Source: a virus. Taken from it: a stretch of DNA of 64,000 nucleotides. The DNA is taken from IMG/VR virus record IMGVR_UViG_3300043958_000214; one strand, 5' to 3'. This document shows positions 1-29,282 of this stretch, in pieces (position 1 is the stretch's first letter; every line of letters begins with the position of its first letter). The notes under the pieces are model-generated. The model was not told the DNA's origin. It did not search any database and worked only from the letters and a program-made list of their open reading frames with translations. The position numbers and the translations under genes were made by a program.

Positions 1-20
1 ACGTCGATGGTGAGGGACAT
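1..20 (-). CDS. cas7: Cas7 (Cse4) N-terminus, runs off window
   Basis: ATG at 20 after RBS CCAGGAG reads MSLTIDV, like the usual Cas7 start; follows cse2 in canonical I-E order. Confidence 0.65.
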
Positions 21-22
21 GG

Positions 23-658
23 TCACTCCTGGCTGGTTGTCGGTTCGGATGTGGGAGGGGTGATGGCGCCGACGTATTGGCGGCCCCAACGGCGCCGGAC
101 GCCGTCCGCCTTGAAGGCGCTGCGAAGATCGGCCAGGTCTGCGGCAAGATCCGGATAGTCGAACCCGATGGCGCGAGAGTGCATGAGCCCGACGAGAGAC
201 CTGAGATGGCGTTCCCTGACGACGTCGTTGCGGGCTGCGAGCAGTGAGGCGAAGTGAGCGCGGACCGTGTCCCCGCCCACCTCCGCGTCCAGGGCCCGTA
301 GGGCACGGGCGAACGGGATCCCATCTTGGTTGGCTTTCGACCCCGGACCCTGCGAGTGAAGGGCCCACAGGGTCAAAGCGATATGAGTGGCTGTCTCCTG
401 GGCGTCGTTCGCCCAATCCTCGCGGGTGCCGGCATCCGGGCGGATAATGTCCGCCCACAGGAACGGAGTCTGGGCCACGGTCTTTCCGACACCTCGGCGA
501 AGCTGCGCCAACGTCCTCTTCGAACGTGACGAGTCGGGAGCGGCATCGACGCGGGCGATGACAGACTTGGTCTGGCAGTACGCCAGGTAGGCGACGTCTG
601 AATAGCGTCGCCGCTGTGGAGCGCCCGGAGGTCTATACCCGGCGCCTGGCTGGGCCAT
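23..658 (-). CDS. cse2: Type I-E Cse2/CasB small subunit
   Basis: LAQLRRGVGK, HIALTLWALHSQ, HLRSLVGLM, DYPDLAADL, RRRWGRQY motifs; RBS AAGGAG before ATG 658. Confidence 0.9.
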   Translation of the reverse strand: MAQPGAGYRPPGAPQRRRYSDVAYLAYCQTKSVIARVDAAPDSSRSKRTLAQLRRGVGKTVAQTPFLWADIIRPDAGTREDWANDAQETATHIALTLWALHSQGPGSKANQDGIPFARALRALDAEVGGDTVRAHFASLLAARNDVVRERHLRSLVGLMHSRAIGFDYPDLAADLADLRSAFKADGVRRRWGRQYVGAITPPTSEPTTSQE

Positions 659-704
659 GAGTTCTCCTTGGATGATGTCGGGGCGGTGTCGCCCCCTTCT
701 GCAA

Positions 705-714
705 TGTGTGTGCC
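705..714 (-). promoter_or_regulatory. Class-B motif (upstream of cse2)
   Basis: GGCACACACA. Confidence 0.55.
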
Positions 715-762
715 GCGGCGCAGCCTCACAGCAAACAGGCCCAGCAAAGGGGCGGCACTCAT

Positions 763-2391
763 CTACTCGACGGCTTGAGGGCGCCCGCGACGAACGCGCT
801 TGGCTACCGGGGCACGGTGGCACTCGGTGGATAAGGCGAGATTCTTGCGCATCGCGGTGGTCCACGTCGCGATCACCGTTCCCGCGTCCTCCGTCTTCTT
901 CTTCGGGTCCGCCTTCAGGGTGAAAGCACGCATGCTGCTCTTGCTCAATCGCTCGTTGACCAGCGCCGAAAGCACCGTGCGCACCCGCGACCTGAAGGCG
1001 TCCCTGGCCTCGATTGGCCCCATTCCCGGGAGGGAGAGGAGCCAGGAGTTGAACGCGTCGCCAACCGCCGCGAGAGCGCGATCGTGATAGTCGGTCTTGC
1101 GTGAGGTCACCCCCATCCGCTTCGCTGGCCGGAAGCCGTCGCAGATGTCGAGGGCCTGCAGCAGTGAGTCCGTGGCTTCGAGGAGCTTCTTCCCAGCCTT
1201 GTAGGCGTTACGGATCTCGCCGAGGAGTAGTTCATCGTCAAGGACCGCCGACGGGATCGTGATCTTGTCTTTGACCGCTGTATCGAAGATTCCCATGCTT
1301 TCGCCGTACTGCTCACCGATGCGCACGAACGTGACGTCGTCGCAGACGCGGTCCGCCCACTCGATGATCGGAATGCTGACCTTGGAGATGCGAGGGAGGA
1401 CGGAGGGGAAGCCCTGCCATAGTGCGCTGGACACGGTGATGGCCTGCGCGCCCTTGTCGTCGATCGGCGCCATCGGATCGCAGGCGATGTCCCTTCGCGT
1501 CTCCTCAGGATGGGTGGCCATCGCCTTCTTGGGGGACGGAACGCAAGCGTTGTATGTGATGGAGGCCCCGATCACCCGCTCTTTCGCCTCGTCCCAATCC
1601 AGACGGATCGAGCGGCTCATGTGGGTGTAGGCGTCGATGATGCCCGTGAAGTGGGAAGACTTGAAGCCTCGCACGTCGAGGATGCTCACGGGGTCTTTCT
1701 CCCAGGAGGGGATGTCTTCGGGACCGGAGGGGATCCGGTAGATCTCGTCGGTGATCGGGATGAGGTTGGCGAGAAGCGTGTCAGCCAGCGTGTCCCGAGC
1801 GATGTAGAGGACGCTGGCGAAACCGCACCAACCCGCGCACCCGTAGATCTTGCTGCCCTTCACCTCAGGATTCCCCTCCTTGGGGCCGCCTTTGGATCCC
1901 CCGGTGTCCCAGTGCTGGGTGACAAGCATCCACCGCGCCGCGTCCGCGGGGTCCATGGAGTCATCCGAGGCTCGCAGTGAGGGGTGGAAGACGAGTCCCG
2001 AGCGCTGAGTGCGGTACACCGGTTTGAGTTTGGAGAGCGGACTGGGGTTAAGGCCTTCCATGCCCGGTGTCTGCAGGAAGGGCTTGTCCCCGATCAGCCA
2101 GAAGTCATCGGCGCGCTCACGCAGGTAGGCGATGGCAGCACGGGAGGCCTTCTCCCACGTCAGTTCCCTCCACTGCGCTTCGCTGCGGGGACCCGAGAGT
2201 GCGCGGTAGAGGATCGCCTCCAGCATTCTCAGCACGCTGGCGTTTTGGAGGGGAGATTCCATAGCGAGATCTGAGATGCGTGGGGCGTCGCGGAACACGT
2301 CGATCAACGTGGCATCACGAGGCTGGGTACCGCCATCGGCGACGGTGATCCACGGTAGGTCGGTGGCGAGGTTGTACGCCCTGTCTATCAT
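763..2391 (-). CDS. cse1: Type I-E Cse1/CasA (Cas8e)
   Basis: YNLATDLPWI start, FWLIGDKPFLQ, AARWMLVTQHWDTGGSKGG, TLADTLLANL, SRSIRL; lies between cas3 and cse2. Confidence 0.9.
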   Translation of the reverse strand: MIDRAYNLATDLPWITVADGGTQPRDATLIDVFRDAPRISDLAMESPLQNASVLRMLEAILYRALSGPRSEAQWRELTWEKASRAAIAYLRERADDFWLIGDKPFLQTPGMEGLNPSPLSKLKPVYRTQRSGLVFHPSLRASDDSMDPADAARWMLVTQHWDTGGSKGGPKEGNPEVKGSKIYGCAGWCGFASVLYIARDTLADTLLANLIPITDEIYRIPSGPEDIPSWEKDPVSILDVRGFKSSHFTGIIDAYTHMSRSIRLDWDEAKERVIGASITYNACVPSPKKAMATHPEETRRDIACDPMAPIDDKGAQAITVSSALWQGFPSVLPRISKVSIPIIEWADRVCDDVTFVRIGEQYGESMGIFDTAVKDKITIPSAVLDDELLLGEIRNAYKAGKKLLEATDSLLQALDICDGFRPAKRMGVTSRKTDYHDRALAAVGDAFNSWLLSLPGMGPIEARDAFRSRVRTVLSALVNERLSKSSMRAFTLKADPKKKTEDAGTVIATWTTAMRKNLALSTECHRAPVAKRVRRGRPQAVE

Positions 2392-2422
2392 CAGTTCCCT
2401 CTCAGCTGGGTAAGTGGTCGCG

Positions 2423-5275
2423 TTACTGGGCCGGTTCGATCCGCAGGCCGAGGCGGTGGTCATAGCGCATGCGGTAACGTCTGCGGCCCACGGCGAAGAG
2501 GTATTCGGATGTGGCGTCGGGGAGGGCGCGGGCGACGATCACGTGAATCTGATCCGCATAACGCGCTTGCTCCCGGTCCGGCTTCCAGTAGTTTTTCGTC
2601 GCGTCATGGACCGCCTTGGATGCCCATTCCGGCAGCGGGACGGTGATCCGCCGGCAGGCCTGCTGCGTGCGCCTAGACGGGGTTGCGCCGCGCTGGAGCT
2701 CCACCGTGTTGCCCAACCCGATGGAGGCGGGGTCGACCCAGCTGGGGGGCATAGGCGCGTTCGGTGTTCGAGGGTCCTCGGTGAGCCAGACGACCTCGAT
2801 GGAGTCGTCTTCCTCGCGAACCCCGATCTTCGCGTCGAGTTCTTCCCCGGTGACGCCGAGGGCGCCCCGGCGGCGCTCGTCCCACCCTCGAAGCGTCTGG
2901 AACTCCTCCCCGGCGAGCATCGCAGTGCGGGTGTCGGGAGCCGGCTTCATGCCGCGCTTTTGCTCGGCGGACTTTCTGGCGTTGCGTGCCCTCTCGGCAT
3001 CCTTCGCTCGCGCGTCGGTGAGCGCCTCCCTCCAGGTTCTCTCGAGAGAGTTCACGGTCGCCTCGTCCTCGGCATAGGCGGCGGCGACCTGGGTGGGGAT
3101 GTCGTCGGGGAGGCGGATGCCGTCCTTGCTGGTGCCGAGGGCAATGAGCGCGGAGCGTAGGAGCGGGTACATGCCGTAGACAAGGTCTGAGCTCTTCGGG
3201 GGAGCCACGGGCGTCGACTGCCATTGGGCGGCGACGATACGGAGCTCGGGGGCGCGCAGGGCGTCGGGCCGTGGCGTGTCTGCGCGGCGGTGGAGGCGCC
3301 CCGCGCGCTGGAGGACGAGGTCCCAGGGCGCGAGGTCGGTGACCATCAGGTCGAAATCAATGTCGAGGGACTGCTCGACGACCTGGGTGGCCACGACGAT
3401 CCTGCGGTACGGGCGGGCGGTGGCGTCACTGCCGAGCTCAGCCTCGATGAGCGTCTCGATGGCCTTGCGGTCCGGGGCGATGAACCGGGAATGATAGAGG
3501 ACGACATCATCCCCGAAGACCGTGCGGAGCCTCGTGTACGTGTCTTGTGCGCGCCCTACCGTGTTGCGGATGACAGCGGCGCACCCGCCATGATCGAGCT
3601 TGGAGGAGAGCATGCTGGCCAGGGCGTCGTCGTCATCGTCGTCGAGGACGAGGCGCACGGTCTGCGTGCGCTCAGATGCGGGCACGACCCTCTGGTGGAC
3701 CCTGTTGTCGGGAGTGACGTAGGTGATGAGCGAAGGGCTAGATGTCACGGCGGTGATCTCGCGCGTTTTCAGGCGGTACCCGCGGGCCCCGTCGCGGTAG
3801 GCGTTGACAAGCCGGATCCTCGACGCGGGCGGGAGGGTCGCGCTCATGAGGATGACGGGGATCCCGTACTTGCCTGCCCAGGCGAGGATGATGTCCAGGA
3901 ACACGCACATGTGCGTGTCATAGGAGTGCACCTCGTCGATGAGGAGGACGCCGCGAGCCATGCCGAGGTGCCTCATGGCCGTGTTCTTAGCTTGAAGGGC
4001 CGCGTAGAGGGCCTGGTCGATGGTTCCAACGACGAGGTCTGAGAGCATGCCCCGGCTGGTCCTCATCGCGAGCCACGGATGAGAGACAACTGCCGAGTCG
4101 TCGCTGCGCGGGGAGGGGAGCCGGACGAACGTATCGCTGAGATCGGCTCGCGAATGAGCGAGGAACGTGCTGACGGGATGGCTCGGACGCGAGGCCTCGA
4201 CCATGCGGATGAACCGTTCGAGGATGGAGTTCGCGGTGGCCATGGTCGGGAGGAAGACGTGGATCCCCGCCATCCCGGCGTTCCCCGCCATGACTGTCGC
4301 CGCGAGCGCGCCGGCTTCTGTTTTCCCTTCGCCCATGGGGGCTTCGATGATCATGAGCCCGGGGGTCCTGTTGCGGGCGATGGTCACGGCCGCGGTCTGG
4401 ATCGGCCGGGCGGAGGGGCGATGGAACCATTGCTGCATCCACTTTTCGGGCGGGAGTCCGGTGTCGGTGGGGTTCCAGTTGACTGGGAGTTGGGAGTGCC
4501 CCCACCCGCGGATGTGGCGGACGCGCATGTTGGCGGGTGAGGTCTGTTCGAAGGGGATCCCCGGGTAGCCGAAGACCTCGTGATCGTTGGACGCGATCCA
4601 GTCCGCTTCGGTGATGAGGCCGAGCAGGAGGATCTGGGCTTCGCGGGTGATTTGGGACCAGGGGCCGTTCGGGGCGAGCCACTGCGTGGCGTCGCAGGCG
4701 TCAATGAGGTGGTTGAGTAGGTCGTTTCGGGCGGCGTTCCATTGGGGTGAAATCCCATATGCCTCCCAGCCGCGGCGGTGATCCTTGAGTTCGCTGTCGT
4801 GTGGCGCGTGCCCGTGGTGGGCGCCGAGGATGTAGCCGATGCGGCGCGCGTCGAGGATCGACCAACCGAGCTCCTCTAGGTAGGTCTCGACGATGATTTG
4901 GCTGTGGATGTTGTGGTGGTAGTCCTCGAAGGGGTCCCCGGGGATTAAGGGAATGTCGAGGCCGAGGTCGATGATCGGGTCGGAGAGGTCTGTGATCTTG
5001 CTCTGGAATGCGGGCGTCGCTTTGCCGATGTCGTGGGCGCCGGCGAGGAAGGCGACGAGTGAGCGCGCCGCCTCCTGCCCTCCTACCGCGCCGGAGACGA
5101 AGTTATGGACGTGGTCGCTGACCGCGCTGTCCCACAGGTGAAGCGCGACATTCGAGGTGTCGGACATGTGGACGGCGAGAGGCACCCAGGAGATGACCTG
5201 GCGTTCGCGTGTCCGAGCCTTGCCCCATAGCGCGGCCGCTGCGGGACTTAGGGAGTCGATGTCCATGTCGTACAT
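2423..5275 (-). CDS. cas3: Cas3 HD nuclease-helicase
   Basis: HD domain (LAVHMSD, GAHDIGKA), Walker A APMGEGKTEA, DEVH, SAT, QRAGRLHR; start set at ATG 5275 because the ORF-track extension runs through the CRISPR array. Confidence 0.95.
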   Translation of the reverse strand: MYDMDIDSLSPAAAALWGKARTRERQVISWVPLAVHMSDTSNVALHLWDSAVSDHVHNFVSGAVGGQEAARSLVAFLAGAHDIGKATPAFQSKITDLSDPIIDLGLDIPLIPGDPFEDYHHNIHSQIIVETYLEELGWSILDARRIGYILGAHHGHAPHDSELKDHRRGWEAYGISPQWNAARNDLLNHLIDACDATQWLAPNGPWSQITREAQILLLGLITEADWIASNDHEVFGYPGIPFEQTSPANMRVRHIRGWGHSQLPVNWNPTDTGLPPEKWMQQWFHRPSARPIQTAAVTIARNRTPGLMIIEAPMGEGKTEAGALAATVMAGNAGMAGIHVFLPTMATANSILERFIRMVEASRPSHPVSTFLAHSRADLSDTFVRLPSPRSDDSAVVSHPWLAMRTSRGMLSDLVVGTIDQALYAALQAKNTAMRHLGMARGVLLIDEVHSYDTHMCVFLDIILAWAGKYGIPVILMSATLPPASRIRLVNAYRDGARGYRLKTREITAVTSSPSLITYVTPDNRVHQRVVPASERTQTVRLVLDDDDDDALASMLSSKLDHGGCAAVIRNTVGRAQDTYTRLRTVFGDDVVLYHSRFIAPDRKAIETLIEAELGSDATARPYRRIVVATQVVEQSLDIDFDLMVTDLAPWDLVLQRAGRLHRRADTPRPDALRAPELRIVAAQWQSTPVAPPKSSDLVYGMYPLLRSALIALGTSKDGIRLPDDIPTQVAAAYAEDEATVNSLERTWREALTDARAKDAERARNARKSAEQKRGMKPAPDTRTAMLAGEEFQTLRGWDERRRGALGVTGEELDAKIGVREEDDSIEVVWLTEDPRTPNAPMPPSWVDPASIGLGNTVELQRGATPSRRTQQACRRITVPLPEWASKAVHDATKNYWKPDREQARYADQIHVIVARALPDATSEYLFAVGRRRYRMRYDHRLGLRIEPAQ

Positions 5276-5279
5276 GCCC

Positions 5280-5289
5280 TGTGTGTGCC
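5280..5289 (-). promoter_or_regulatory. Class-B motif (cas3)
   Basis: GGCACACACA-GGGC-ATG. Confidence 0.65.
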
Positions 5290-5316
5290 GCGAAAAACCG
5301 ACGCAGCGCACAACGG

Positions 5317-5588
5317 GGGCTATCCCCACGCGGGTGGGGAACATCAGGAGCTTGTTGTCCCCCGTCTGTCTGAGGACGGACCATCCCCACGCTGGTGGGG
5401 AACATCGGGTGGGAGAAGAACTCCTCGGGCGGGGCCTGGGACCATCCCCACGCGGGTGGGAAACTAGACGCTGCCGGAGGCGGTCAAGGCTGGTGGGCGG
5501 ACCATCCCCACGCGGGTGGGGAACATGCCGTTGTAGGCCGTGACGACGGGGGCGTCGTTGGATCATCCCCGCATGCGGCGGGGAACGA
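5317..5588 (-). CRISPR. Type I-E mini-array, 5 repeats / 4 spacers
   Basis: 28-nt repeat ATGTTCCCCACCCGCGTGGGGATGGTCC (minus) at 5317, 5378, 5439, 5499; divergent 29-nt copy at 5560; spacers 33, 33, 32, 33 nt; palindromic CCCC..GGGG stem. Confidence 0.95.
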
Positions 5589-6006
5589 CAGGCGTCGTGT
5601 CTTGGATGCCGGTGCGCCGGGTGAACTCCTCCGACAGTCGGTGGCGTTCGGCTTGGCGGTCAGCCGTCCACCCAATCACTCGAACGTCCTGGTCGCGCTG
5701 GTCGAGGCAGTCGCGGGCCTCGGCGACGATCTGGTCCATGGGGCAGCTGGACGCGCAGACGAGGCGTGTGTCTCGCCCCGTTGGCGTGGCGATGGTGACG
5801 TCGTTGCGGATGCACCACAGGAAATCATCTCGCGTTTCCCAGTGCCAGCCGTCGCCGGGGTCGGGCAGGCCGTTGTCGGCAAGGAGGTAGCGGGCTGCGA
5901 GGTCGGCCGCGTGCCGGCGGTACGCCGCCTTGATGGCAAGGAGTGGGACGACAAACAGGTCCAAGAGAACGAGGACGGCGAGCAAGGCTTGGGTCGGGGT
6001 CAGCAT
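5563..6006 (-). CDS. Small membrane-anchored hypothetical protein
   Basis: RBS AGGAG, hydrophobic N-terminus; last codons and stop lie inside the first CRISPR repeat. Confidence 0.7.
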   Translation of the reverse strand: MLTPTQALLAVLVLLDLFVVPLLAIKAAYRRHAADLAARYLLADNGLPDPGDGWHWETRDDFLWCIRNDVTIATPTGRDTRLVCASSCPMDQIVAEARDCLDQRDQDVRVIGWTADRQAERHRLSEEFTRRTGIQDTTPVVPRRMRG

Positions 6007-6016
6007 GGAGGTTCTC

Positions 6017-7036
6017 CTAGAGACTGTTGATGGGTGTGGCACCCGCGGTCGGGTCGGTGACGAGGCTGTATCCGCGGTCGTCGGCGTGAATGAGCGCCCG
6101 CATGAGGAGGTCCACGTCGCTGGCGTAGAGGCCCGAGTTTGGTAGGGCGTTGAGTTCGACGACGATGGTCTTGCCGGTGTCGGCGTGGGTGGCGAGGTCG
6201 AGGACGAACGTGCCCATCCCGTCGCAGACGCGCTGGGCGAACAGTCGGTAGTCCTGGGCGAGGTCTGGGCGGTCCTCGACAGGGCTGTCAGGGTCGTTGC
6301 GCCTTCGGCGCGTGCGCATGTCGAAGGCGCCCCGGGCGGGGTCGTGGTCGAGGGGCGTGTACTCCTCGATGCAGCCGGCGCCCGTGACGGGGACACCGTC
6401 GACGACGAACAGCCGGTACTCGTGGGTCATGGGGATCCACTCCTGGGCCAAGAGCGCCTTCTCGGCCCCATCAAGGCGGACGACCGCCCAGTCGAGGGCG
6501 TCCCAGATCCGCTGGGACATGACGTCGGGGTCAGGGTCGAGGTCGAGGAACCAGATGCCACCCTTGGACTGGGCGGCCTTCAGGACTCCCCTCTCCACGC
6601 CCTGTTCGGCGAGGTATGCGAGCCAGTGGGCGGCGCTGTCCGGGCGCTGCCTCTCAGTGTCGAAGGTGACGCGCTGGTAGCGGCGCCCGCCGTAGCGCTT
6701 GAGGAGCGGGTGCATGAGGAACCGATCGCTTGCGTCCATGCCCTCTTCGTACATCGGGACGGGCCCGAGCCGATGCCGGAGCGTGTCCGCATCCCACGGG
6801 CCGAGCGAGACCTGCAGGTCTCCCCCGCTGGCCCGCCACGCGGCCGCCATCCGGCAGATGTCCTCCCAGCAGTACTCGATGTCGGCGCGCGGGTCCGGGT
6901 TCTGCCAACCATCCCACGCGGGGTCGGCCGCCCGGGCGTCCGCGAGCGCGCGTTCCGCTCGGGCACGTTTGTCGTGGTCCCAGGTGGTGGGGATGCCGGG
7001 GTAGGCGCGGATGCCGCCGGAGTAGAGGGTGGTCAT
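6017..7036 (-). CDS. ATP-grasp protein, R2K/DUF4343-like
   Basis: EWIPMTHEYRLFVVDG, FVLDL, VVELNALPNSGLY. Confidence 0.7.
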   Translation of the reverse strand: MTTLYSGGIRAYPGIPTTWDHDKRARAERALADARAADPAWDGWQNPDPRADIEYCWEDICRMAAAWRASGGDLQVSLGPWDADTLRHRLGPVPMYEEGMDASDRFLMHPLLKRYGGRRYQRVTFDTERQRPDSAAHWLAYLAEQGVERGVLKAAQSKGGIWFLDLDPDPDVMSQRIWDALDWAVVRLDGAEKALLAQEWIPMTHEYRLFVVDGVPVTGAGCIEEYTPLDHDPARGAFDMRTRRRRNDPDSPVEDRPDLAQDYRLFAQRVCDGMGTFVLDLATHADTGKTIVVELNALPNSGLYASDVDLLMRALIHADDRGYSLVTDPTAGATPINSL

Positions 7037-7437
7037 CGCGCGGCCTCGCGCCAGCCGAGTTCGTAGCCAACCGCGATGGATGCCTTGTAGTCGTCGGACT
7101 CCTCGGTATGTTGGGCGAGTGCGTGCTTCTCGCTGTAGCGGGGCCGGCCGGTCTTGCGGTCGTACCAGCCGGCGGCGTAGCCGACACGGAGGGGACCTCG
7201 TTCGCCCTCGCTGAGTCGATCGGTGTGCGTGGGCCAGCGTTTCAGCGCGGCGTCGCGTCCGTCCTGTGCGGCCTGTCGCACGTCATCGTCGTCGGACGCA
7301 GAGCTTGCCTCCGTCTTCTGCACCTTGACGGTCTTTGCATAGTCGTCGAGCTTGTCGGCGCGGCCCGGGTCGTTCTCCATGCGTGCGACGCGCGCCTGGA
7401 GCTCAAGGTAGTTGATGACCACGTCGATGGTCGCCAT
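7033..7437 (-). CDS. Hypothetical protein
   Basis: ORF with RBS, overlaps next gene by 4 nt. Confidence 0.65.
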   Translation of the reverse strand: MATIDVVINYLELQARVARMENDPGRADKLDDYAKTVKVQKTEASSASDDDDVRQAAQDGRDAALKRWPTHTDRLSEGERGPLRVGYAAGWYDRKTGRPRYSEKHALAQHTEESDDYKASIAVGYELGWREAAR

Positions 7438-7484
7438 CGGTTCGCCTTTCCGTCCTGCGCGGACTCTCCGCGCCCTCACCGCCT

Positions 7485-7495
7485 GTTGTGAGGCA
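7485..7495 (-). promoter_or_regulatory. Class-A motif core
   Basis: GCATG-N11-TGCCTCACAAC. Confidence 0.8.
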
Positions 7496-7516
7496 AGGTG
7501 CGGGCCCATGCAGCGC

Positions 7517-8155
7517 TTAGGCGAGTCCGAATCGGTTCCAGGGTCCTTCGACTGCCGGGCTGGCTGCGCCGATTCCGTGCAGGCGGACAACTTCGGCGAC
7601 CGCGGCGTCGAGGCGGATGGGGGTGAGATCGTTGACGTCGAGGCCGACGTTGAGCTGCTGGTAGCCCTCCCGGGTCCGCCACGCCTCATGGACGTGACCG
7701 CACAGGACAGGCAGGTGCCCATTGAGCGGTCGGCGGTCTGGGTAGCGGTCGGTGTCCTTGTGGTCGCCTTTGACGGGCATGTGCGACAAGACGATGCGGT
7801 GACCGTCGATCTCCAGCTCGACGGAACCGGACGTGTAGACCTGGTCGAATCCGGCCGCGTAGAACTCGGGGAGGGCTTTCATAGCCCCGCGGATGTTCTT
7901 CGCGGTGGTGTGGCGGTGCCAGCACTTGTCGTGGTTGCCGGCGATGAGGATCTTGCGTCCGTTGAGTCGGCTGGCCTGCTTCAGTCCGTCGCTCATGGCG
8001 ACGTCACCCAGGTGGTAGACGATGTCGTTCGGGGCGACGGCGGCGTTCCAGTTCGCGACGATGGCGTCGTCGTGCTGCTGGACGGTGTCGAAGCCGCGCA
8101 GGCCGGCGACGAGGCGGTGACCGAAGTGAGTGTCGGACGTGACCCAGGTTCTCAT
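7517..8155 (-). CDS. Calcineurin-like metallophosphoesterase
   Basis: SDTHFGH, GDV, GNHD, SH, GHVH motifs. Confidence 0.9.
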   Translation of the reverse strand: MRTWVTSDTHFGHRLVAGLRGFDTVQQHDDAIVANWNAAVAPNDIVYHLGDVAMSDGLKQASRLNGRKILIAGNHDKCWHRHTTAKNIRGAMKALPEFYAAGFDQVYTSGSVELEIDGHRIVLSHMPVKGDHKDTDRYPDRRPLNGHLPVLCGHVHEAWRTREGYQQLNVGLDVNDLTPIRLDAAVAEVVRLHGIGAASPAVEGPWNRFGLA

Positions 8156-8161
8156 GCCCCT

Positions 8162-8172
8162 GTTGTGGGGCA
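8162..8172 (-). promoter_or_regulatory. Class-A motif core
   Basis: GCATG-N11-TGCCCCACAAC-N6-ATG. Confidence 0.8.
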
Positions 8173-8261
8173 TGAGGCAGGTTCATGCTCGCTCATGAGG
8201 GGGACGGCGCTCGTCCACGTACCGGCGTGTGTTCGCGAGGCAGCAGGGTGCGTGGCGGCGA

Positions 8262-8528
8262 TCAGTTGTAGACGTGGTCCCGTTTACCCACATCAATGAC
8301 GACGACGACTAGCCTGTCGTCCTGAATGTCGCAGATAATGCGGTATTCCCCGACGCGGTATCGCCACAGTCCCGCGAGGTTCCCGGTCAGCCCCTTGCCG
8401 CGCGACCGGGGGTCTCCCGTGGCTGCTACCGCAGAGAGTGATCGTCGAAGACGTCGAGAAGTCTGGGGATCACGCTTTGCGAGCCATTTCACGACGTCCG
8501 GTTCGTACTCGATTGCCCACTGAGTCAT
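8262..8528 (-). CDS. relE: RelE/ParE-family toxin
   Basis: GKGLTGNLAGLWRYRVGEYRIICDI...VGKR. Confidence 0.9.
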   Translation of the reverse strand: MTQWAIEYEPDVVKWLAKRDPQTSRRLRRSLSAVAATGDPRSRGKGLTGNLAGLWRYRVGEYRIICDIQDDRLVVVVIDVGKRDHVYN

Positions 8529-8800
8529 GAGATGGCGTCGAGGTCAGCCTGAGTGGGATCACCGGCAGGGCCGAGTTCGGCGTCAACCTCTGTGGCGGTG
8601 AGTGCGCGTCTTCTGCCGGATCGCAAGTCGGCGGCGCGTTCGGCGATTCGCAGTTCCCATTCCAGGTCCGCGAGATCGCGTTCGAGAACCTCGCGGACAA
8701 CGTCGCCCTGACTGCGCCTGGTGTTGCGGGCGATCACGGCGATCCGTTCGCGTAGGTCCTCGGGGAGCCTCACAGATATCGGTGCGCTGAGCGGTGCCAT
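8525..8800 (-). CDS. RHH antitoxin (RelB-like)
   Basis: ISVRLPEDLRERI ribbon-helix-helix, directly upstream of and overlapping relE. Confidence 0.85.
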   Translation of the reverse strand: MAPLSAPISVRLPEDLRERIAVIARNTRRSQGDVVREVLERDLADLEWELRIAERAADLRSGRRRALTATEVDAELGPAGDPTQADLDAIS

Positions 8801-8818
8801 AACTACAGTGTATACAAT
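8801..8818 (-). promoter_or_regulatory. Host-type -10 and palindromic operator of relBE
   Basis: TGTATACA palindrome overlapping TACACT-N6-ATG. Confidence 0.55.
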
Positions 8819-8825
8819 GTCGCGT

Positions 8826-9986
8826 TCACTGCCCAGCAGGGAGATGCTCCATGTGGTCGAGCCGAGCGCGAGCTTCTTCGAGAGCGTGCCCGGTTGCGGC
8901 CCATTCACCACGGCGCAGTTCATCGGCCTTGCGGAAGTTCCGCATGGCCCGCATCGCCTTGTCGACCTTGTCGTGGGCGACGCGGGCGCGGATGACGTCG
9001 AGGCGCGCGTAGTCCTTCTCGCTCATTGAGTCGGGGATCCCGGTTGCGGCCTTCCACGTCGCCTTGGATACGGACAGCGAGATGTAGGTGGAGTCGCCTT
9101 CACGTTCACGCTGGACGAGCGCGTACTCGGTGCGCCCGCCGTCGCTCACGCGAACCTTCTTGTCGGAGATCCCCTCCTCGGCGATGATCTGGGCAAGGGT
9201 GCGCACCCGACCGTCCTCGCGCCGCCACTGCTGGGCAAGGTCCTTCTCGACCGTCTTCCGGACGGCGGGCGTGAGTGCCTCGAGGTCGATGCCGGCGTCG
9301 TGATAGCGGGGCGCCGGCGGGGCGGGTGGTGGCGTGACGTCGGCGTAGGCGCCATCTGGGAAAGCGAACGCGTGCGCGCCGGTGCCGGGCTTGTAATCTT
9401 CCGACGGCATGGTGAACTCGCGTGTCTCGCCCTGACCGCCTTTCCTCGCCCAGACGGTTGTCATCCCATCGTCGCCCCGAGACGCGGCGTTGACGATCCA
9501 GTCGTCGGCGTGTGCCGCGTTGAACTCGCGCGCAGCGACCACGTTGGACTCCTCGGGCGTCACCCTCTCGCCGGTCACCTGCTCCCAGGCGTCGGGCTGG
9601 TACTCGCGAAGAAGACGTTCCGCGAGGTCGATGTTCCCGATCTCGTCCGGGAATGCGTAGGCGGCACCCGCCCAGCCGTCGTCCTCCTCGTACCAGCCGC
9701 CTTTCTCGCGGAACGGGGCGGGGACCCTCCGGTTGCGTTGGGCGGACAGTTTGTATCCGCCGTGACTGTCGGTGTAGACGCGGACAATGCCGGGGGCAAT
9801 GTCCTCGACCTGGTCGGCTTCACCCCACGGGGTTCGGGACCCGACCTGAAGGCCCACGTTCCCCCAGTCGGTATGGGGGGTGCCCAACTCGACGCCTGCG
9901 GGCTCGGCGTGGTCCTTCGGGCTGTACTGGCCGACGTTGGCGGGGTTCTTCCCCCGCGGGTGCTTGGTTTCGTCGTAGGTGCTCAT
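8826..9986 (-). CDS. Hypothetical protein with HPRGKNP N-terminal tag and DUF7007-like domain
   Basis: MSTYDETKHPRGKNPANVGQYSPK; TPWG...SHGG...GWYEED motif. Confidence 0.75.
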   Translation of the reverse strand: MSTYDETKHPRGKNPANVGQYSPKDHAEPAGVELGTPHTDWGNVGLQVGSRTPWGEADQVEDIAPGIVRVYTDSHGGYKLSAQRNRRVPAPFREKGGWYEEDDGWAGAAYAFPDEIGNIDLAERLLREYQPDAWEQVTGERVTPEESNVVAAREFNAAHADDWIVNAASRGDDGMTTVWARKGGQGETREFTMPSEDYKPGTGAHAFAFPDGAYADVTPPPAPPAPRYHDAGIDLEALTPAVRKTVEKDLAQQWRREDGRVRTLAQIIAEEGISDKKVRVSDGGRTEYALVQREREGDSTYISLSVSKATWKAATGIPDSMSEKDYARLDVIRARVAHDKVDKAMRAMRNFRKADELRRGEWAATGHALEEARARLDHMEHLPAGQ

Positions 9987-9993
9987 ACCCATT

Positions 9994-10004
9994 CTTGTGC
10001 GGCG
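9994..10004 (-). promoter_or_regulatory. Class-A motif, variant
   Basis: CGCCGCACAAG-N7-ATG; weak upstream box. Confidence 0.6.
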
Positions 10005-10021
10005 GGTGTCGCAGTCCGGCG

Positions 10022-10510
10022 TCAATCGCGTCCGTGCTCTTCTTCCGCCAGCATCCGCCGGATGTCCTCCGCCCTCTCGCGCTCACGCTCGGTCTGCGGG
10101 TGATTGACGCAGTAATACTGACCGTCGTGTGTGAAGCATGGGTAGTGCTTGGCGCCGCAGACCGCACATTCGACGCCGACCTGCTCGGCGGTGAACACGC
10201 GGCTGGCGAAGCGGCCGCAGTGTCGGCAGATCCCAGCGCCGTTGTGGTATCCGCGAGGCTCGTACTCATGCCCTAGGCAGGTACGGATCCGCTCCCACTG
10301 GGACCACGCTGCGTCCTCAGCGGCGTCGAGTGACTTTCCTTCGCCGCGGATGAAGGTGTTGTCGGGGAACGCCTCGAAGAACGAGGTGCGGTACGGCTCG
10401 CCATCGCGCACGAGGACAATCCCCCGTCTCCCGCCCTGGATGAGGCAGTCGTGCGGCCACGCTTGATGCGGCTCGTAGTCGGGGGCGGTGATGGAGCGGA
10501 ACGGGCTCAC
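10022..10510 (-). CDS. Cys-rich hypothetical protein
   Basis: GTG start after GAGGAG; CRHC and CAVC pairs. Confidence 0.7.
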   Translation of the reverse strand: MSPFRSITAPDYEPHQAWPHDCLIQGGRRGIVLVRDGEPYRTSFFEAFPDNTFIRGEGKSLDAAEDAAWSQWERIRTCLGHEYEPRGYHNGAGICRHCGRFASRVFTAEQVGVECAVCGAKHYPCFTHDGQYYCVNHPQTERERERAEDIRRMLAEEEHGRD

Positions 10511-11373
10511 AGGGTCTCCTCTAGTTCCCGAGCCGCGGCCTGGACGGCTTCGCTCAAACCGTCGACGTGAATCTGATGCACCGTGGTCGTCAGATACGCT
10601 TCGGACACGCGGGGAAGGACCGGTTCGATGAGGCTTGCGACGCCTACGGGAGTGCCGGCACCCCAGCACGCCTTCATCGCCAGCCGGATGATCTCTTCAC
10701 CGGAGCCAAGGTCCTGGCACAGTCTTCCAGCGATCAGGTGGTGGGCGATCCTTCGAGCCCGGGCTGCCCGCGTGGGAATGCCCCGGTGACACGCAAGTGC
10801 GTCGTCTCCAGACGGGTCGAGGTCGCTCCAGTCTTCCCGATTGATGATCGGCCATGGCGCCAGGACCTCAAAGGACAGCATGGAATCGGCGAGAACCCCA
10901 GCCCCGGGTAGAACCCGGAGCCACGTCTCTTCGCGTTCCTGCCACGATGAGTCAGGCACGTCATGGGGCCTGTCCGCGTTGTTCCAGTACCCGTAGGACT
11001 GCCAGCCTGCGTCGACCTGTCGGACAGCGTCGAACATCTGCGCGTCGACGGCCTGCGGGACCCCGTAGTAGAGGCGGGTCTGAGGATCACGCCCGATCCA
11101 GACTCGGAGTTCCCCCGTCGAGAGGCATCGGCGAGCATGCTCAGTCCGCCACTCGTCCATGATGTCGCGGCCGGCGGCGACCACGGGTGACGTCCCCGAG
11201 CACGTCGGAAGCCCGACCAGTCTCGCGTCGGCGATGGCTGTGGCCCTCACCAGCGTCTCGTTCTCGACAATGTGGGCGCTCAGCGTCGTCGCGTGTGCGC
11301 GGACCGCGTCCGCGAAGTCGAAGGGATCCGTTCCGGGCCGCAGTCGGAAGCCGTCGTAGATTGTCGTGCTCAC
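10507..11373 (-). CDS. Hypothetical protein, paralog of 14483..15349
   Basis: GTG start after GAGGAG; shared GRDPQT-YYG and YWN-ADRP motifs. Confidence 0.75.
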   Translation of the reverse strand: MSTTIYDGFRLRPGTDPFDFADAVRAHATTLSAHIVENETLVRATAIADARLVGLPTCSGTSPVVAAGRDIMDEWRTEHARRCLSTGELRVWIGRDPQTRLYYGVPQAVDAQMFDAVRQVDAGWQSYGYWNNADRPHDVPDSSWQEREETWLRVLPGAGVLADSMLSFEVLAPWPIINREDWSDLDPSGDDALACHRGIPTRAARARRIAHHLIAGRLCQDLGSGEEIIRLAMKACWGAGTPVGVASLIEPVLPRVSEAYLTTTVHQIHVDGLSEAVQAAARELEETL

Positions 11374-11410
11374 AGGGTCTCCTCGGTTCACGCCTGAGCT
11401 TTCATACTCA

Positions 11411-11421
11411 GTTGTGAGGCA
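11411..11421 (-). promoter_or_regulatory. Class-A motif core
   Basis: GCACG-N11-TGCCTCACAAC-N5-ATG (MKAQA* leader). Confidence 0.8.
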
Positions 11422-11508
11422 ACGAGGCAGCTCGTGCATGGGTCCCGATCAACACCCCCATCAAGGGGTTCCATCGAACATGGCAAAGCCCCTCATCGGG
11501 CGCGGCGA

Positions 11509-13302
11509 TTAGGCCGTGAGGTCGTCGTGGACACCGACCTTGGCGAACTCGTTGGTGCCATCGGGCAGGACCCAGAAGTGGAGGCGCCTGGCGGATGGGG
11601 TCTTGACCTGCAGGCTGGCCCTCCAGGCCACGGCGCCGTCGTCGCGGATGCGTGCGGGATCGTCTCCGCCGTTGCCGGTGCGCAGCCGGTGGAGCTCCCG
11701 GCTGGGCATCTGGGCTGCCAGGCCGGTGAGAACTTCGAAGACGACGTCAGCGACCTTGGCCTCGCTGATGCCCTCCAGGTGATCGAGGGAGTCGAGGAAG
11801 TCGTCGCCCAGAAGGTAGTCGGGAAGGGGATGCTCGGCTTGTTCTCCGGGTTCGGTGCGGGTCGCCCACGCGGTGAGGACGAGATAGCGGAAGCCCTGCT
11901 CACGGTCGGCGAACCGCGGGGCCGGGGCCTGGCCTGTCGTCTTGGCTGACTTCTTGCGGAGCTTCGTGCGTGCCGCCTTGAGGCTGTTCTCCGCGTTCCT
12001 CGCCCGACGCTCCGCCTGGTCGAGGAGGAAGCGGAGTTGGTCCGTTTCGTCGGTCAGGTCATCGACTCGCTGCTCGAGCATGCGTCTCGCCCGATCGCAT
12101 GCCGACAGCCGCGCCTTCATGACCTCGCTGGCCGGGACCTGCGCGTTGAGCGGCTCCGTGTCCTGGTCGGACGCAGGAATGTCCTGCTGTTCGGCGTCGG
12201 GGCCGTTGGGGGTGTCGGGCGCTTCGTTTCCCGGGGCGGCTTCGCCGCGCTTCGCAGTGAGCAGGGCGGGAGTCGGGAGAGGTCTGTCTTCTGGCGTCGC
12301 AAGCAGTTGCCCAGAGGGTTCCAGGTCCTGCTGGTCTTGTTCGGTGTCGTCGACGTCCTCGGTTGTCATCCACGGCGGACCTCCAGGAAGAAGACTGGGG
12401 GCGGGGACCGGCTGCTCGTCATCGTTGATGTCGCTGAGAGTCAGGGACCAGCGGGGCGCTGTGCTGACAACCCGGGCTTCGACCACCTCGCCCGGTGTCA
12501 TGAGTGATCGCAGGTCGTCGGCAGGGTTCGTTGTGACGTCCTCGCGTGCGACGCCGACGACAACCGCCTTGGTGCGCGTCGTCGGATACAGCATGAGGCC
12601 GGCGGTGTCGCCACTCACCGCCCCGACCTTGGCGAGGACCACGTCACCCACCGCGTAGTGGGCAAGTGCCTCGTGGCAGGGACGCAAGCCCCGAGTGACG
12701 TCCAGGCGGCCCGTCTCAGGGTCGAAGAGTCCTTCGACCTGTTGTCCGACGCTGACGATACGGTCGATCGAGACGTCGGCGACGGTGAGCTCCTCAGCGA
12801 TCGATGCGGGCATCGCGGCCCCGACGTCGACGAACGCGCGCCCCGACACGATGCCGGTCACTCTGCCTGCGGCGTGCCTGAGCGTGGTGGCCGGTGTGGA
12901 TTGCGTCAGCCCCGCTGAGAAGGCCATGCGCAGGAGGTCGGAGATCAGACTGTCGGTCGCGCGCTTGCCTTCGTGGGCGGCGTAAGCGAACCGCAGCGGG
13001 GAGCGCGTCAGGTCGGTCTTCCATTCGTGACCGACGGGGTAGACGCGTCCAGCGCCGCCGTAGACCTGGGTGCCTTCGACCATGCGCCGGGCGAATTCTC
13101 GGCTCGCTGCCCCCGTCGCCATGAGATAGACCTCGGCCAGGTCCCCGGCTTCGCGCGCGACCCGGTCAACGTCGATCCACGGCTGCGTTCGGGCCGGCGG
13201 CGTGGTGACGACGACGATCGGGCGGCGGCGCGCGCTGCCGTTGAGTCGGCTCGCCAGTTCGGCGGCGGACCTCGGGTCGGAGACGTCGTGGATGTCGGAC
13301 AT
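11509..13302 (-). CDS. 597-aa multidomain protein (S1-like beta repeats, coiled coil, possible RelE-like C-terminus)
   Basis: Long ORF; VGDVVLAKV and PGEVVEARV repeats; coiled coil about aa 385-435; ends RRLHFWVLPDG...VGVHDD. Confidence 0.7.
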   Translation of the reverse strand: MSDIHDVSDPRSAAELASRLNGSARRRPIVVVTTPPARTQPWIDVDRVAREAGDLAEVYLMATGAASREFARRMVEGTQVYGGAGRVYPVGHEWKTDLTRSPLRFAYAAHEGKRATDSLISDLLRMAFSAGLTQSTPATTLRHAAGRVTGIVSGRAFVDVGAAMPASIAEELTVADVSIDRIVSVGQQVEGLFDPETGRLDVTRGLRPCHEALAHYAVGDVVLAKVGAVSGDTAGLMLYPTTRTKAVVVGVAREDVTTNPADDLRSLMTPGEVVEARVVSTAPRWSLTLSDINDDEQPVPAPSLLPGGPPWMTTEDVDDTEQDQQDLEPSGQLLATPEDRPLPTPALLTAKRGEAAPGNEAPDTPNGPDAEQQDIPASDQDTEPLNAQVPASEVMKARLSACDRARRMLEQRVDDLTDETDQLRFLLDQAERRARNAENSLKAARTKLRKKSAKTTGQAPAPRFADREQGFRYLVLTAWATRTEPGEQAEHPLPDYLLGDDFLDSLDHLEGISEAKVADVVFEVLTGLAAQMPSRELHRLRTGNGGDDPARIRDDGAVAWRASLQVKTPSARRLHFWVLPDGTNEFAKVGVHDDLTA

Positions 13303-26944: not shown

Positions 26945-27018
26945 AGACGACGCCTCGTACCCCCTCCGAAGGGCAGGATCGTGGGTGGACGAACCCGCAG
27001 AGGACAGACAGGGTGAAG

Positions 27019-27090
27019 CGCCCCCGGCAGGATTCGAACCCGCGGCACGTGGGGTAGAGACCCACTGCTCTTCCGCTGAGCTACGGAGGC
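27019..27090 (-). tRNA. tRNA-Arg(TCT)
   Basis: Cloverleaf; anticodon arm GTGGG TCTCTAC CCCAC (C33). Confidence 0.8.
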
Positions 27091-27091
27091 A

Positions 27092-27182
27092 TGGCGTCCT
27101 CGGCGGGAGGGGCCACCTCATCCGCCTTTGGCGTCCTCGGCGGGAGGGGCCACCTCATCCGCCTTTGGCGTCCTCGGCGGGA
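27092..27182 (-). repeat. 37-nt tandem repeats containing the tRNA-Arg(CCT) 3' end
   Basis: 17-nt TGGCGTCCTCGGCGGGA (plus) at 27092, 27129, 27166 with identical linkers. Confidence 0.9.
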
Positions 27183-27241
27183 TTCGAACCCGCAACCTAC
27201 GGTGTAGGGGACCGACGCGCTATCCGTTGCGCCACGAGGAC
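27166..27241 (-). tRNA. tRNA-Arg(CCT)
   Basis: Loop CCCCTAC (C33); CCA encoded. Confidence 0.8.
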
Positions 27242-27245
27242 ATCG

Positions 27246-27317
27246 AGCCACCAGGTGGATTCGAACCACCGTTCCCCGATTACAGGTCGGGAGTTCTCTC
27301 CGCTGAACTATGGAGGC
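27246..27317 (-). tRNA. tRNA-Thr(TGT)
   Basis: CCCGA CCTGTAA TCGGG (C33). Confidence 0.8.
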
Positions 27318-27345
27318 GACGGCCGTGCCTCCCGGCGCAGCCTAG

Positions 27346-27418
27346 AGCCCGAGGTGGGGGTCGAACCCACCGCCTCCCGATTACGAAACGGGCGCTCAAC
27401 CAGGTGAGCTTCTCGGGC
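27346..27418 (-). tRNA. tRNA-Thr(CGT)
   Basis: Loop TTCGTAA. Confidence 0.85.
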
Positions 27419-27421
27419 ATG

Positions 27422-27480
27422 GAGGTGCTGGCCGGAAGCGTTCCACTCACCGACCACTCCTCTTCGAGGTGCTGGCCGGA
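27422..27480 (-). repeat. Duplicated tRNA-Cys 3' end (15 nt)
   Basis: GAGGTGCTGGCCGGA (plus) at 27422 and 27466. Confidence 0.8.
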
Positions 27481-27537
27481 GTCGAACCGGCCTGAGCGGC
27501 TTTGCAGGCCGCGACCTTGCCGCTCGGCCACAGCACC
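27467..27537 (-). tRNA. tRNA-Cys(GCA)
   Basis: GCGGC CTGCAAA GCCGC; U73. Confidence 0.9.
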
Positions 27538-27538
27538 A

Positions 27539-27616
27539 TGGGGAGACTGACCGGATTTGAACCGGCGACGACCCGGGCCACAACCGGGCGTTCTACCAGA
27601 CTGAACTACAGCCTCC
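27539..27616 (-). tRNA. tRNA-His(GTG)
   Basis: G-1:C73, loop TTGTGGC, CCA encoded. Confidence 0.92.
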
Positions 27617-27618
27617 AG

Positions 27619-27690
27619 TGCTTCCGGGTGGAATCGGACCACCGCGCTCCGGGCTTCAACCGGATGCTCTACCAACTGAGCTACAGAAGC
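27619..27690 (-). tRNA. tRNA-Phe(GAA)
   Basis: TCCGG TTGAAGC CCGGA. Confidence 0.88.
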
Positions 27691-27721
27691 AATGCGGGAC
27701 GACGCCCCGCAGGCGCGACCG

Positions 27722-28054
27722 TCACGGGCGGTCGAAAGCGTAGGGCCGACCCGGCGCCGGGTTCAGCTTGTCCCACCCCTCATGGTCCGGGTGGGCGGCC
27801 CAGAACTCGCTCGTGTGCGCGTGAGAGCGGGCGGGATCCAACAGGCGCTCCATCCACGGGTATTGTCGGCACATCTCGTGGGCGCAGTCGTGACACACGA
27901 ACACCGTGGGAATGCCCTGATCGTTGTCGTCATGGAACATGCCGTAGCCGCCGCCGAACGTGATCGGCAGGGCGTTCTCAAGCTGAGTCGTGTCGGGGTC
28001 GTCGTCCTTCCACACCGGCTTGAGTTCCGTCCCGCAGTTGATACAGGTCGCCAT
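27722..28054 (-). CDS. Small putative zinc-binding protein inside the tRNA array
   Basis: CINC and CHDC pairs; RBS AAAGGGG. Confidence 0.7.
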   Translation of the reverse strand: MATCINCGTELKPVWKDDDPDTTQLENALPITFGGGYGMFHDDNDQGIPTVFVCHDCAHEMCRQYPWMERLLDPARSHAHTSEFWAAHPDHEGWDKLNPAPGRPYAFDRP

Positions 28055-28069
28055 CGTGACCCCCTTTCG

Positions 28070-28140
28070 CTCCGCCTCTAGGATTCGAACCTAGGTTCGG
28101 GGAACCAAAATCCCCTGTGCTGCCCTTACACCAAGGCGGA
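28070..28140 (-). tRNA. tRNA-Gln(TTG)
   Basis: GGGGA TTTTGGT TCCCC. Confidence 0.9.
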
Positions 28141-28212
28141 ATTGACTCGGCGTCTTCACGCCGTCGTCGGGATTTCTCCAAAACTTCGGCTTCGATGCCG
28201 CTGGCATCTCAG

Positions 28213-28285
28213 TCGGGATGGCGGGTCTCGAACCCACGACCTTCCGCTCCCAAAGCGGACGCGCTACCTACTGCGCCACATCCCG
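28213..28285 (-). tRNA. tRNA-Pro(TGG)
   Basis: TCCGC TTTGGGA GCGGA. Confidence 0.9.
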
Positions 28286-28289
28286 AAAG

Positions 28290-28362
28290 TGCGCGCGGCG
28301 GGGCTCGAACCCGCAGCCTCCGGCTCCGGAGGCCGGCGCTCTTTCCGTTGAGCTACGCGCGC
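28290..28362 (-). tRNA. tRNA-Arg(CCG)
   Basis: CCGGC CTCCGGA GCCGG. Confidence 0.9.
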
Positions 28363-28363
28363 A

Positions 28364-28441
28364 TGGTTGCGGCGGTTGGACTCGAACCAACGACCCCTCC
28401 GTTATGAGCAGAGCGCTGCTAACCGACTGAGCTACGCCGCA
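28364..28441 (-). tRNA. tRNA with CAT anticodon (elongator Met or Ile2)
   Basis: CTCTG CTCATAA CGGAG; CCA encoded; lacks initiator GGG/CCC. Confidence 0.85.
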
Positions 28442-28464
28442 ATCAAGGCTCCGCGAGGAGCCAG

Positions 28465-28538
28465 TGGTGACGCCTGGGATCGAACCAGGGATCTCCGCCT
28501 TATCAGAGCGGTGCCTTCACCAGCTTGGCCACGTCACC
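28465..28538 (-). tRNA. tRNA-Ile(GAT)
   Basis: CCGCT CTGATAA GGCGG. Confidence 0.9.
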
Positions 28539-28539
28539 G

Positions 28540-28612
28540 TCGGGATGGCGGGGCTCGAACCCACGACCTCGCGGCCCCCAGCCGCGCGCGCTTCCTACTG
28601 CGCCACATCCCG
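28540..28612 (-). tRNA. tRNA-Pro(GGG)
   Basis: CGCGG CTGGGGG CCGCG. Confidence 0.88.
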
Positions 28613-28712
28613 GTTGCACGGCGCTGATCGGGCGCTGACGGCCTGTGCCAAGCCGGAGGTTTCGCAAGACGCCGTACGCGCGTTCGCGGACAGTTGCGGG
28701 CCGACGACCCAG

Positions 28713-29190: not shown

Positions 29191-29205
29191 GACTGTTACT
29201 TCCAG

Positions 29206-29278: not shown

Positions 29279-29282
29279 ATAG

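Follow-up and report, generated by a model that had tools for sequence, protein, structure and literature searches.

The window (the whole stretch of 64,000 nt that was analysed) contains a genuine type I-E CRISPR array of five repeats and four spacers, located by a repeat search on the minus strand at 5586-5317. Four of the repeats are of one main type (GTTCCCCACCCGCGTGGGGATGGTCC, zero to two mismatches; 5524-5499, 5464-5439, 5403-5378, and 5342-5317, all minus strand), of which no copies are expected by chance (0 in 100 shuffles). The first repeat, R1 (GTTCCCCGCCGCATGCGGGGATGATCC; core 5586-5560, minus strand), is of a different sequence type, as the earlier note had recognized; it deviates from the main type by a compensatory stem pair, one extra base in the loop, and one base in the handle. 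The G-to-G period of the repeats is 62/60/61/61 nt and spacers 1 to 4 are 32, 31, 32, and 32 nt long, which agrees with what characterizes I-E arrays, i.e., repeats of 28-29 nt, unique spacers of 32-33 nt, and a period of ∼61 nt. Repeats of this subtype form a GC-rich hairpin of 6-7 bp with a 4-nt loop, behind which an 8-nt handle stands; this hairpin was predicted by folding in five of five repeats (7 bp, −9.5 to −16 kcal/mol). A search of the array against Rfam returned no CRISPR repeat family, its sole match being a chance one to a flavivirus element (E 0.69).

R1 in its full extent (5560-5588, minus strand) has a stem of 6-7 bp and a loop of 5 nt. Behind it lie, all on the minus strand, spacer 1 (5527-5558), the consensus copy R2 (5498-5526), spacer 2 (5467-5497), R3 (5438-5466), where a C-to-T change leaves a U-G wobble in place of one C-G pair of the stem, spacer 3 (5406-5437), R4 (5377-5405), with a loop changed from CCGC to CAGC, spacer 4 (5345-5376), and the terminal repeat R5 (5316-5344), with an intact hairpin and a degenerate 3′ tail (ATAGCCC versus ATGGTCC). 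Adjacent repeats are never identical, and the private changes found across them are of the kind seen in trailer-end copies; the handles of R2 to R4 are intact. In the I-E repeat of Escherichia coli, the hairpin comes first and the handle, ATnnnCCn, last. By analogy, the array would be read on the minus strand toward cas3 and, thus, co-directionally with cas3-cas8e-cas11.

Counted from the end of the repeat core (5317), R5 ends 41 nt before the ATG of cas3 (5275), which is the distance given in the earlier note; the gap proper comprises 40 nt (5276-5315, minus strand) and carries GGCACACACAGGGC (motif 5289-5280) right before the start codon. Downstream follow, again on the minus strand, cas3 (2423-5275; 950 aa; Pfam Cas3_HD 2e-42 and Cas3-like_C_2 2e-36) with its HD and helicase domains intact, cse1/cas8e (763-2463; 566 aa; CRISPR_Cse1 5.5e-51), which overlaps the end of cas3, and cse2/cas11 (23-865; CRISPR_Cse2 6e-26). 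According to the domain search, all three are full length, and they are the gene neighbors expected of an I-E array. The longest frame of cse2 starts at 865, yet the Pfam match begins only at residue 119; GGCACACA is found at 714-707 (minus strand), followed by six nucleotides and an ATG at 700, inside the end of cse1, and this ATG is probably the true start of cse2. The genes for Cas7, Cas5, and Cas6e lie outside the window, on its left side, and were read in a relative (see below). The Cas3 protein is very divergent: among 5.8 billion proteins, the best match was 48% identical and all others were below 41%. Matches in JGI metagenomes were 31-37% identical (plus one 48-residue fragment at 75%), those in species genomes 32-38%, and no close Cas3 relatives were found in IMG/VR.

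Upstream, the array is preceded by a small gene of 147 codons (5563-6006, minus strand), the product of which has one N-terminal hydrophobic helix; its GC content by codon position (0.71/0.49/0.82) is of the coding type, and its dN/dS is 0.61. Ten nucleotides further upstream lies an R2K-clade ATP-grasp gene (6017-7036, minus strand). The terminal codons of the small gene (V V P R R M R G) and its TGA (5565-5563) fall inside R1, so that the first repeat indeed supplies the end of the upstream reading frame, as had been noted earlier. Likewise, the claim that the array has no AT-rich leader was confirmed, because the 150 nt upstream of R1 are coding DNA with a GC content of 68%. Neither a promoter-like nor a terminator-like site was found between 5150 and 7300, and nothing resembling a σ70 promoter precedes R1. 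The signal GGCACACA/GGCACACACA, which recurs in the element (see below), is also absent upstream of R1 in the window.

The history of the locus became discernible from a 112-kb metagenome scaffold (L045/L047) encoding a homologue of the small gene that is 86% identical. The gene order there is DUF7007, metallophosphatase, small gene, ATP-grasp, homologue of the 147-aa gene, cas3, cse1, cse2, cas7, cas5, and cas6e. The similarity between the two elements is uneven, with the ATP-grasp proteins being 89% identical, Cas3 40%, and Cse1 30%. At the nucleotide level, window positions 8173-5560 align with L045 positions 7840-10459 at 90.4% identity (blastn), and this alignment ends at the last base of R1 (5560); R1 itself is identical in 26 of 27 positions to L045:10433-10459, in the same location. 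The arrays of the L045 cassette use a third repeat type. Because the homology of the backbone ends exactly at the last base of R1, R1 is a relic repeat, or a scar left by recombination, and marks where an exchangeable CRISPR-Cas cassette begins on its left side. The locus, therefore, displays the reshuffling of CRISPR-Cas on mobile elements at single-base resolution, with a conserved backbone that stops at a repeat; beyond R1, the related elements carry I-E cassettes that are 30-40% identical in protein, both with the gene-start signal of the family. The same comparison accounts for the overlap of reading frame and repeat. The small gene of L045 ends with a TAG that lies 17 nt ahead of R1. CAA stands at this codon in the window, where the frame runs 13 codons further, into R1. 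The overlap of the gene with R1 is thus a by-product of the loss of this stop codon and not of design.

The signal shared by these cassettes is GGCACACA(CA). In the window, GGCACACA occurs seven times, versus 2.1 copies expected, and each time on the minus strand (714-707, 5289-5282, 31232-31225, 35382-35375, 37204-37197, 45115-45108, and 57231-57224). At the copies that were checked (cas3, the probable cse2 start, and a gene at 57217), it stands 6 nt before an ATG. In the relatives, it is found at L045:10553, 11273, and 14407 and, in a third, more distant cassette (L030), at ∼157. It heads cas3, cse1 (as the variant CGCACACACA), and an array leader in L045; cas3 is headed by the identical 17-mer GGCACACACAGGGCATG in the window and in L045, and a copy of GGCACACACA and two badly decayed repeats precede cas3 in L030. 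Probably, GGCACACA(CA) is a signal for gene starts or promoters that belongs to this family of elements. Since the cassettes of the window, L045, and L030 all use it at the head of cas3, the exchange of cassettes seems, from these comparisons, to have taken place within one element family rather than with a host.

What a more complete array at this position looks like is seen in L045. There, R1 is followed by a 36-nt spacer, a degenerate repeat of the cassette's own type, a 137-nt leader (55% GC versus 66% in the background) containing GGCACACACA, ten repeats that are uniform near the leader and decay toward cas3, a second GGCACACACA, and cas3. The spacers at this position are wholly different from those of the window. 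In total, the scaffold carries three arrays: 10 repeats precede cas3, five degenerate ones separate cas3 from cse1, and seven follow cas6e. The array between cas3 and cse1 (L045:14098-14367) lies where regulatory mini-arrays of I-E systems are known to occur; the well-kept repeats right after cas6e (L047:9667-10060) are found in the usual place of cas1-cas2, and the end of that array is partly covered by a 131-aa ORF of the gene caller. The 20 spacers of L045 had no match in the window and nothing significant in plasmids or phages; spacer 5 (10934-10966) matches a heavy-metal P-type ATPase gene on plasmids of Pimelobacter simplex in 27 of 28 nt, which, with an E value of 0.5, is near chance. 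If this match were real, it would be another target of the transporter type.

The layout of the window would follow from that of L045 by a single event. An ancestor with the small gene, R1, an old spacer, a degenerate repeat, an AT-richer leader of ∼137 nt with GGCACACACA, a multi-spacer array, a second GGCACACACA, and cas3 may have undergone recombination between two repeats, one just after R1 and one internal to the array. This would have removed the leader together with the newer repeat-spacer units and left R1 abutting the four oldest spacers, i.e., the array of the window would be the trailer-end remnant of a longer one. We infer that one such repeat-repeat recombination in an L045-like array would yield exactly the present layout, and it is the most likely cause; this scenario draws on one relative, the cassette of which is not orthologous, and the layout may also have arisen independently of an ancestor of the L045 type.

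No genes for adaptation adjoin the array, as the earlier note had also stated. When all ORFs of eight canonical I-E loci were used in tblastn searches, only cse1 and cse2 were matched in the 64-kb window, and only cse1 through cas6e in 30 kb of the L045/L047 scaffold; cas1 and cas2 were found in neither, and neither gene was called in the ∼10.8 kb that follow cas6e in the relative. Judged by its gene content, the system is of type I-E and confined to interference, cas1 and cas2 being absent from its vicinity. The earlier note had named a conventional leader, cas1-cas2, and spacer turnover among relatives as speaking against its reading. L045 does have a leader and different spacers, and cas1-cas2 were not found there either. 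Because the relative carries three arrays even though no cas1/cas2 were found in it, spacers are acquired somewhere within the family, with the adaptation proteins presumably supplied in trans. Adaptation in trans has been proposed for many plasmid systems (PMC9071438), and a preprint on IV-A3 plasmid systems (10.1101/2023.06.23.546257) reports it for these.

Population data were obtained by aligning the Logan contigs of four sludge runs (X8-X11) to window positions 3800-7800; short loose ends at 5511, 5525, and 5528 in X8 and X9 were left out. Wherever it was covered (incompletely in X10 and X11), the array had no substitutions in the contigs of any of these runs; X11 contained a 1-nt insertion in the gap between R5 and cas3. 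An alternative spacer set joined to the flanks was absent from the contigs of the four runs, in which rare variants can be dropped. The fixed-target array of the earlier note is weakly borne out by these data, as the four runs possibly stem from one sampling campaign.

In the same community, two of the spacers have perfect matches outside of any array. For spacer 3, contigs in all four runs (X8-X11) match positions 5406-5438 only, with unrelated, non-repeat sequence on both sides and the triplet AAC upstream; for spacer 4, contigs in X10 and X11 match 5345-5377 only, also with unrelated non-repeat flanks and with AGG upstream. Each match, thus, comprises 33 nt, as it includes, besides the spacer, the variable base with which the repeat ahead of it ends (5438 and 5377, respectively). 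The integrase of type I-E systems takes the last repeat base from the PAM, and a PAM-derived base is what these matches display. The spacer-3 target and its flanks translate without a stop into the C-terminus of the ATPase of a polar amino-acid ABC transporter (NCBIfam models EhuA, TcyN, HisP, and GlnQ; best E 1.5e-4, profile positions 219-248 of 252), and the target reads as a chromosomal-type transporter gene, going by this translation. The spacer-4 target lies in an open, GC3-rich frame; its peptide (31 aa) matched no NCBIfam family, had no meaningful match in plasmids, and was absent from 151 sampled actinobacterial genomes. Arithmetic on the depth tables showed that the target contigs are ∼30- to 300-fold deep, compared with 3- to 6-fold for the element, which places the targets outside the element itself. 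The fact that the protospacers are still perfect indicates that, measured against their targets, the spacers are not old. For spacer 1, no significant target was found in phages, plasmids, or IMG/VR, and none for spacer 2 in the searches made. The whole array, and likewise the four spacers by themselves, had only chance-level matches (E ≥0.1) in PLSDB and INPHARED, besides other I-E arrays; pattern scans of IMG/VR with spacers 1-4 yielded no targets, and there were no full or near-full spacer matches in the window or in the comparison loci.

The locus, hence, combines an array devoid of a leader with intact hairpins and with guides that have living targets in the same community. It sits co-directionally behind the tight operon of the ATP-grasp and small genes, from which it is not separated by a predicted terminator. 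Because no leader of its own exists, the upstream operon is tight, and a terminator is lacking, read-through is the only visible route to expression. Read-through from this operon would transcribe the array, and Cas6e would cut the RNA into four fixed crRNAs, at least two of which match DNA of the same community. We favor this reading, in which operon transcripts still extend through the array and are cut into four fixed guides, with a probability of about 0.6, given that both the hairpins and those cas genes that are visible have stayed intact; it is from these preserved parts that we infer expression, processing, and interference. The predicted crRNA of the main type is ∼61 nt long with an 8-nt 5′ handle (AUGGUCCN). 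R1, with its 5-nt loop, has a 5′ handle (AUGAUCCA) that differs from the main type, and therefore, crRNA 1 may not be made or loaded. Preservation of the hairpins is a weak sign of selection, as only four substitutions occurred among the main-type repeats and, by our estimate, this outcome would arise about one time in eight under neutrality.

Clearly less probable, and yet the strongest competitor, is that the array is a silent fossil, which lost its leader and promoter, is no longer usefully expressed, and persists merely because it lies between two maintained genes, while other arrays of the element guide the system. Consistent with this are the lack of a leader, of the GGCACACACA signal, and of a σ70-like promoter upstream of R1, the fact that every repeat is unlike its neighbor, and the presence of a separate signal for cas3 downstream of the array; moreover, L030 retains just two badly decayed repeats at this position, and an array that is silent could most readily afford guides that match far more abundant genomes perfectly. 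If the targets were on the host chromosome, an active system would even be self-lethal, which would argue for silence or inhibition. Against this stand the hairpins, intact in five of five repeats, and the handles of R2-R4; in addition, without a terminator between operon and array, some read-through RNA is hard to avoid, and the protospacers are still perfect. Were the array silent, it would be a well-dated example of array decay. If the targets are chromosomal, plasmid-borne type I systems could shape which bacteria a conjugative element inhabits. Two features deserve follow-up, namely, the recombination boundary, which coincides to the base with a repeat, and the guides, which are directed at genes that are co-resident and possibly chromosomal.

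A partial match to spacer 4 lies within the window itself. On the plus strand, 39 nt upstream of R1 and inside the small gene, AAC is followed by a 15-nt site matching spacer-4 positions 1-15 (5624-5641, with the pairing part at 5627-5641). I-E Cascade flips out positions 6 and 12 of the guide, and the mismatches are at exactly these positions, so that 13 of 13 pairing positions within the first 15 nt agree. A run of at least 13 paired positions anywhere in the window was observed in 2% of shuffled-spacer trials (p ∼0.02, for a match that was noticed post hoc). The site is a candidate for Cascade binding, as a roadblock, and its meaning is uncertain. L045 retains the site and lacks a matching spacer, so the co-conservation that marks regulatory mini-arrays was not observed.

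A more elaborate reading would combine these elements: a frozen, promoter-less guide set is expressed solely as the 3′ tail of the upstream operon, Cas6e frees it from the mRNA by cutting at R1, spacer 4 acts as a partial-match roadblock limiting this read-through, and the perfect guides hit chromosomal-type genes of much more abundant actinobacteria, such that particular recipient lineages, and not competing plasmids or phages, are what the element kills or avoids. As a whole, we consider this composite unlikely. Slightly more doubtful still is that the guides chiefly regulate themselves, with Cascade carrying the spacer-4 crRNA binding the partial match, without recruitment of Cas3, so that less read-through reaches the array and cas3. 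Throttling by partial-match binding of this kind is exerted by regulatory mini-arrays, CreA, and tracr-L. Besides the complete agreement of the pairing positions and the rarity of such runs among shuffled spacers, the AAC preceding the site is the same triplet as that at the spacer-3 protospacer, and, for the read-through transcript, it is the non-template strand to which the crRNA would be expected to pair; that I-E mini-arrays can regulate through partial matches has been documented (PMC10120712). The post hoc nature of the match, however, weighs against it, as do the perfect 33-nt match of spacer 4 elsewhere, due to which this spacer looks ordinarily acquired, the retention of the site in L045 despite the lack of a matching spacer, and the location of the target in a coding region instead of a promoter. 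Least probable is the proposal of the earlier note that a host-type R1 and element-type repeats form a hybrid array processed by two different Cas6 enzymes: R1 does differ in a compensatory stem pair, loop length, and a handle base, but it is no evidence for such a mixture because it belongs to the backbone shared with L045, and the cassette there has repeats of a third type; furthermore, the main-type repeat (≤2 mismatches) was absent from 401 sampled genomes of one actinobacterial order, and a second cas6 was not seen in the window or in the relative.

The locus was compared with systems already known. The canonical locus of the E. coli type runs cas3, cas8e, cas11, cas7, cas5, cas6e, cas1, cas2, leader, and array. 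The window shares with it the 29-nt hairpin repeats, 32-nt spacers, the 61-nt period, the order cas3-cas8e-cas11, and a variable last repeat base that matches the flank of the protospacer as if derived from the PAM. In contrast to it, the array of the window lies upstream of cas3, with the trailer end 41 nt from the ATG, and neither a leader nor cas1-cas2 is present. Arrays upstream of cas3, in either orientation, were found in 9 of 43 Cas3-derived loci scanned, with gaps to cas3 of 185-1,449 nt; co-oriented or divergent arrays in this place are common, and in that respect ordinary, in actinobacterial I-E loci.

According to a survey of plasmid CRISPR systems (Pinilla-Redondo et al, NAR 2021, PMC9071438), I-E is among the commonest plasmid subtypes, adaptation modules are present in only 36% of plasmid systems, and conjugative plasmids are enriched among the carriers. 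Like the plasmid class 1 loci described there (PMC9071438), the window has an I-E interference module without cas1/cas2 on a plasmid-like element of the conjugative type. Unlike them, its Cas proteins are very divergent (Cas3 ≤48%), its array is leaderless, and its two identifiable targets do not belong to a plasmid or phage in public collections. The locus is best described as the remnant of an array, probably shortened by a deletion that took the leader, at the boundary of a cassette swap in a plasmid I-E system that lacks an adaptation module. Regulatory mini-arrays (Shmakov et al, 2023, PMC10120712) usually consist of two repeats located before cas8, target the cas8 promoter, and are conserved among close relatives. 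With these and with CreA, the window has in common degenerate repeats near cas genes and, within the locus, a seed-proximal partial match with a PAM-like triplet; it differs in having five repeats and a match that lies inside an upstream coding region and is not conserved in L045. R1 resembles the solitary repeat units and RNA anti-CRISPRs of phages and plasmids (Camara-Wilpert et al, 2023, PMC10651486) in being a repeat-like hairpin that is carried by a mobile element and differs from the repeats next to it. In contrast to RNA anti-CRISPRs, it is located at a homology breakpoint and stands in register with a spacer and repeats in both elements. An RNA anti-CRISPR is a repeat that stands alone, has its own promoter, and imitates the repeat of the host; R1 does not fit this description, given the spacer and further repeats that follow it in register and the fact that no promoter of its own was found.

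The element that carries the array has 38 tRNA genes for all 20 amino acids and a gene for tmRNA (tag ANDNFILAA) within 8 kb (27018-35225, minus strand). The window also encodes an NAD ligase, helicases, an RpfB-like transglycosylase, and a VirB4-like ATPase; plasmids of 170-600 kb from Arthrobacter-group bacteria, Curtobacterium, and Bifidobacterium carry the closest homologues of this ATPase. DNA near-identical to window positions 1-12000 was absent from phage and plasmid collections; the stretch is present in Logan contigs of a dozen bioreactor-sludge runs. From this gene content, we take the carrier to be a plasmid-like element, large and conjugative, from an actinobacterium living in sludge.

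Two observations concern related sequences elsewhere. In ∼16 related records of Streptomyces phages (Piccadilly, Ignacio, Vondra, and relatives), an unannotated stretch of 36 nt (e.g., NC_073489, 34715-34750) is 84-87% identical to R1 plus the first bases of its spacer and, by this resemblance, may be a solitary I-E repeat unit. In run X10, high-depth contigs (∼20-40×, compared with 3× for the element) match the window at 5006-5059 (the HD domain of cas3) and at 6212-6479 (ATP-grasp) and then diverge, which suggests that more abundant relatives of the cas3 HD and ATP-grasp genes exist in the same sludge.
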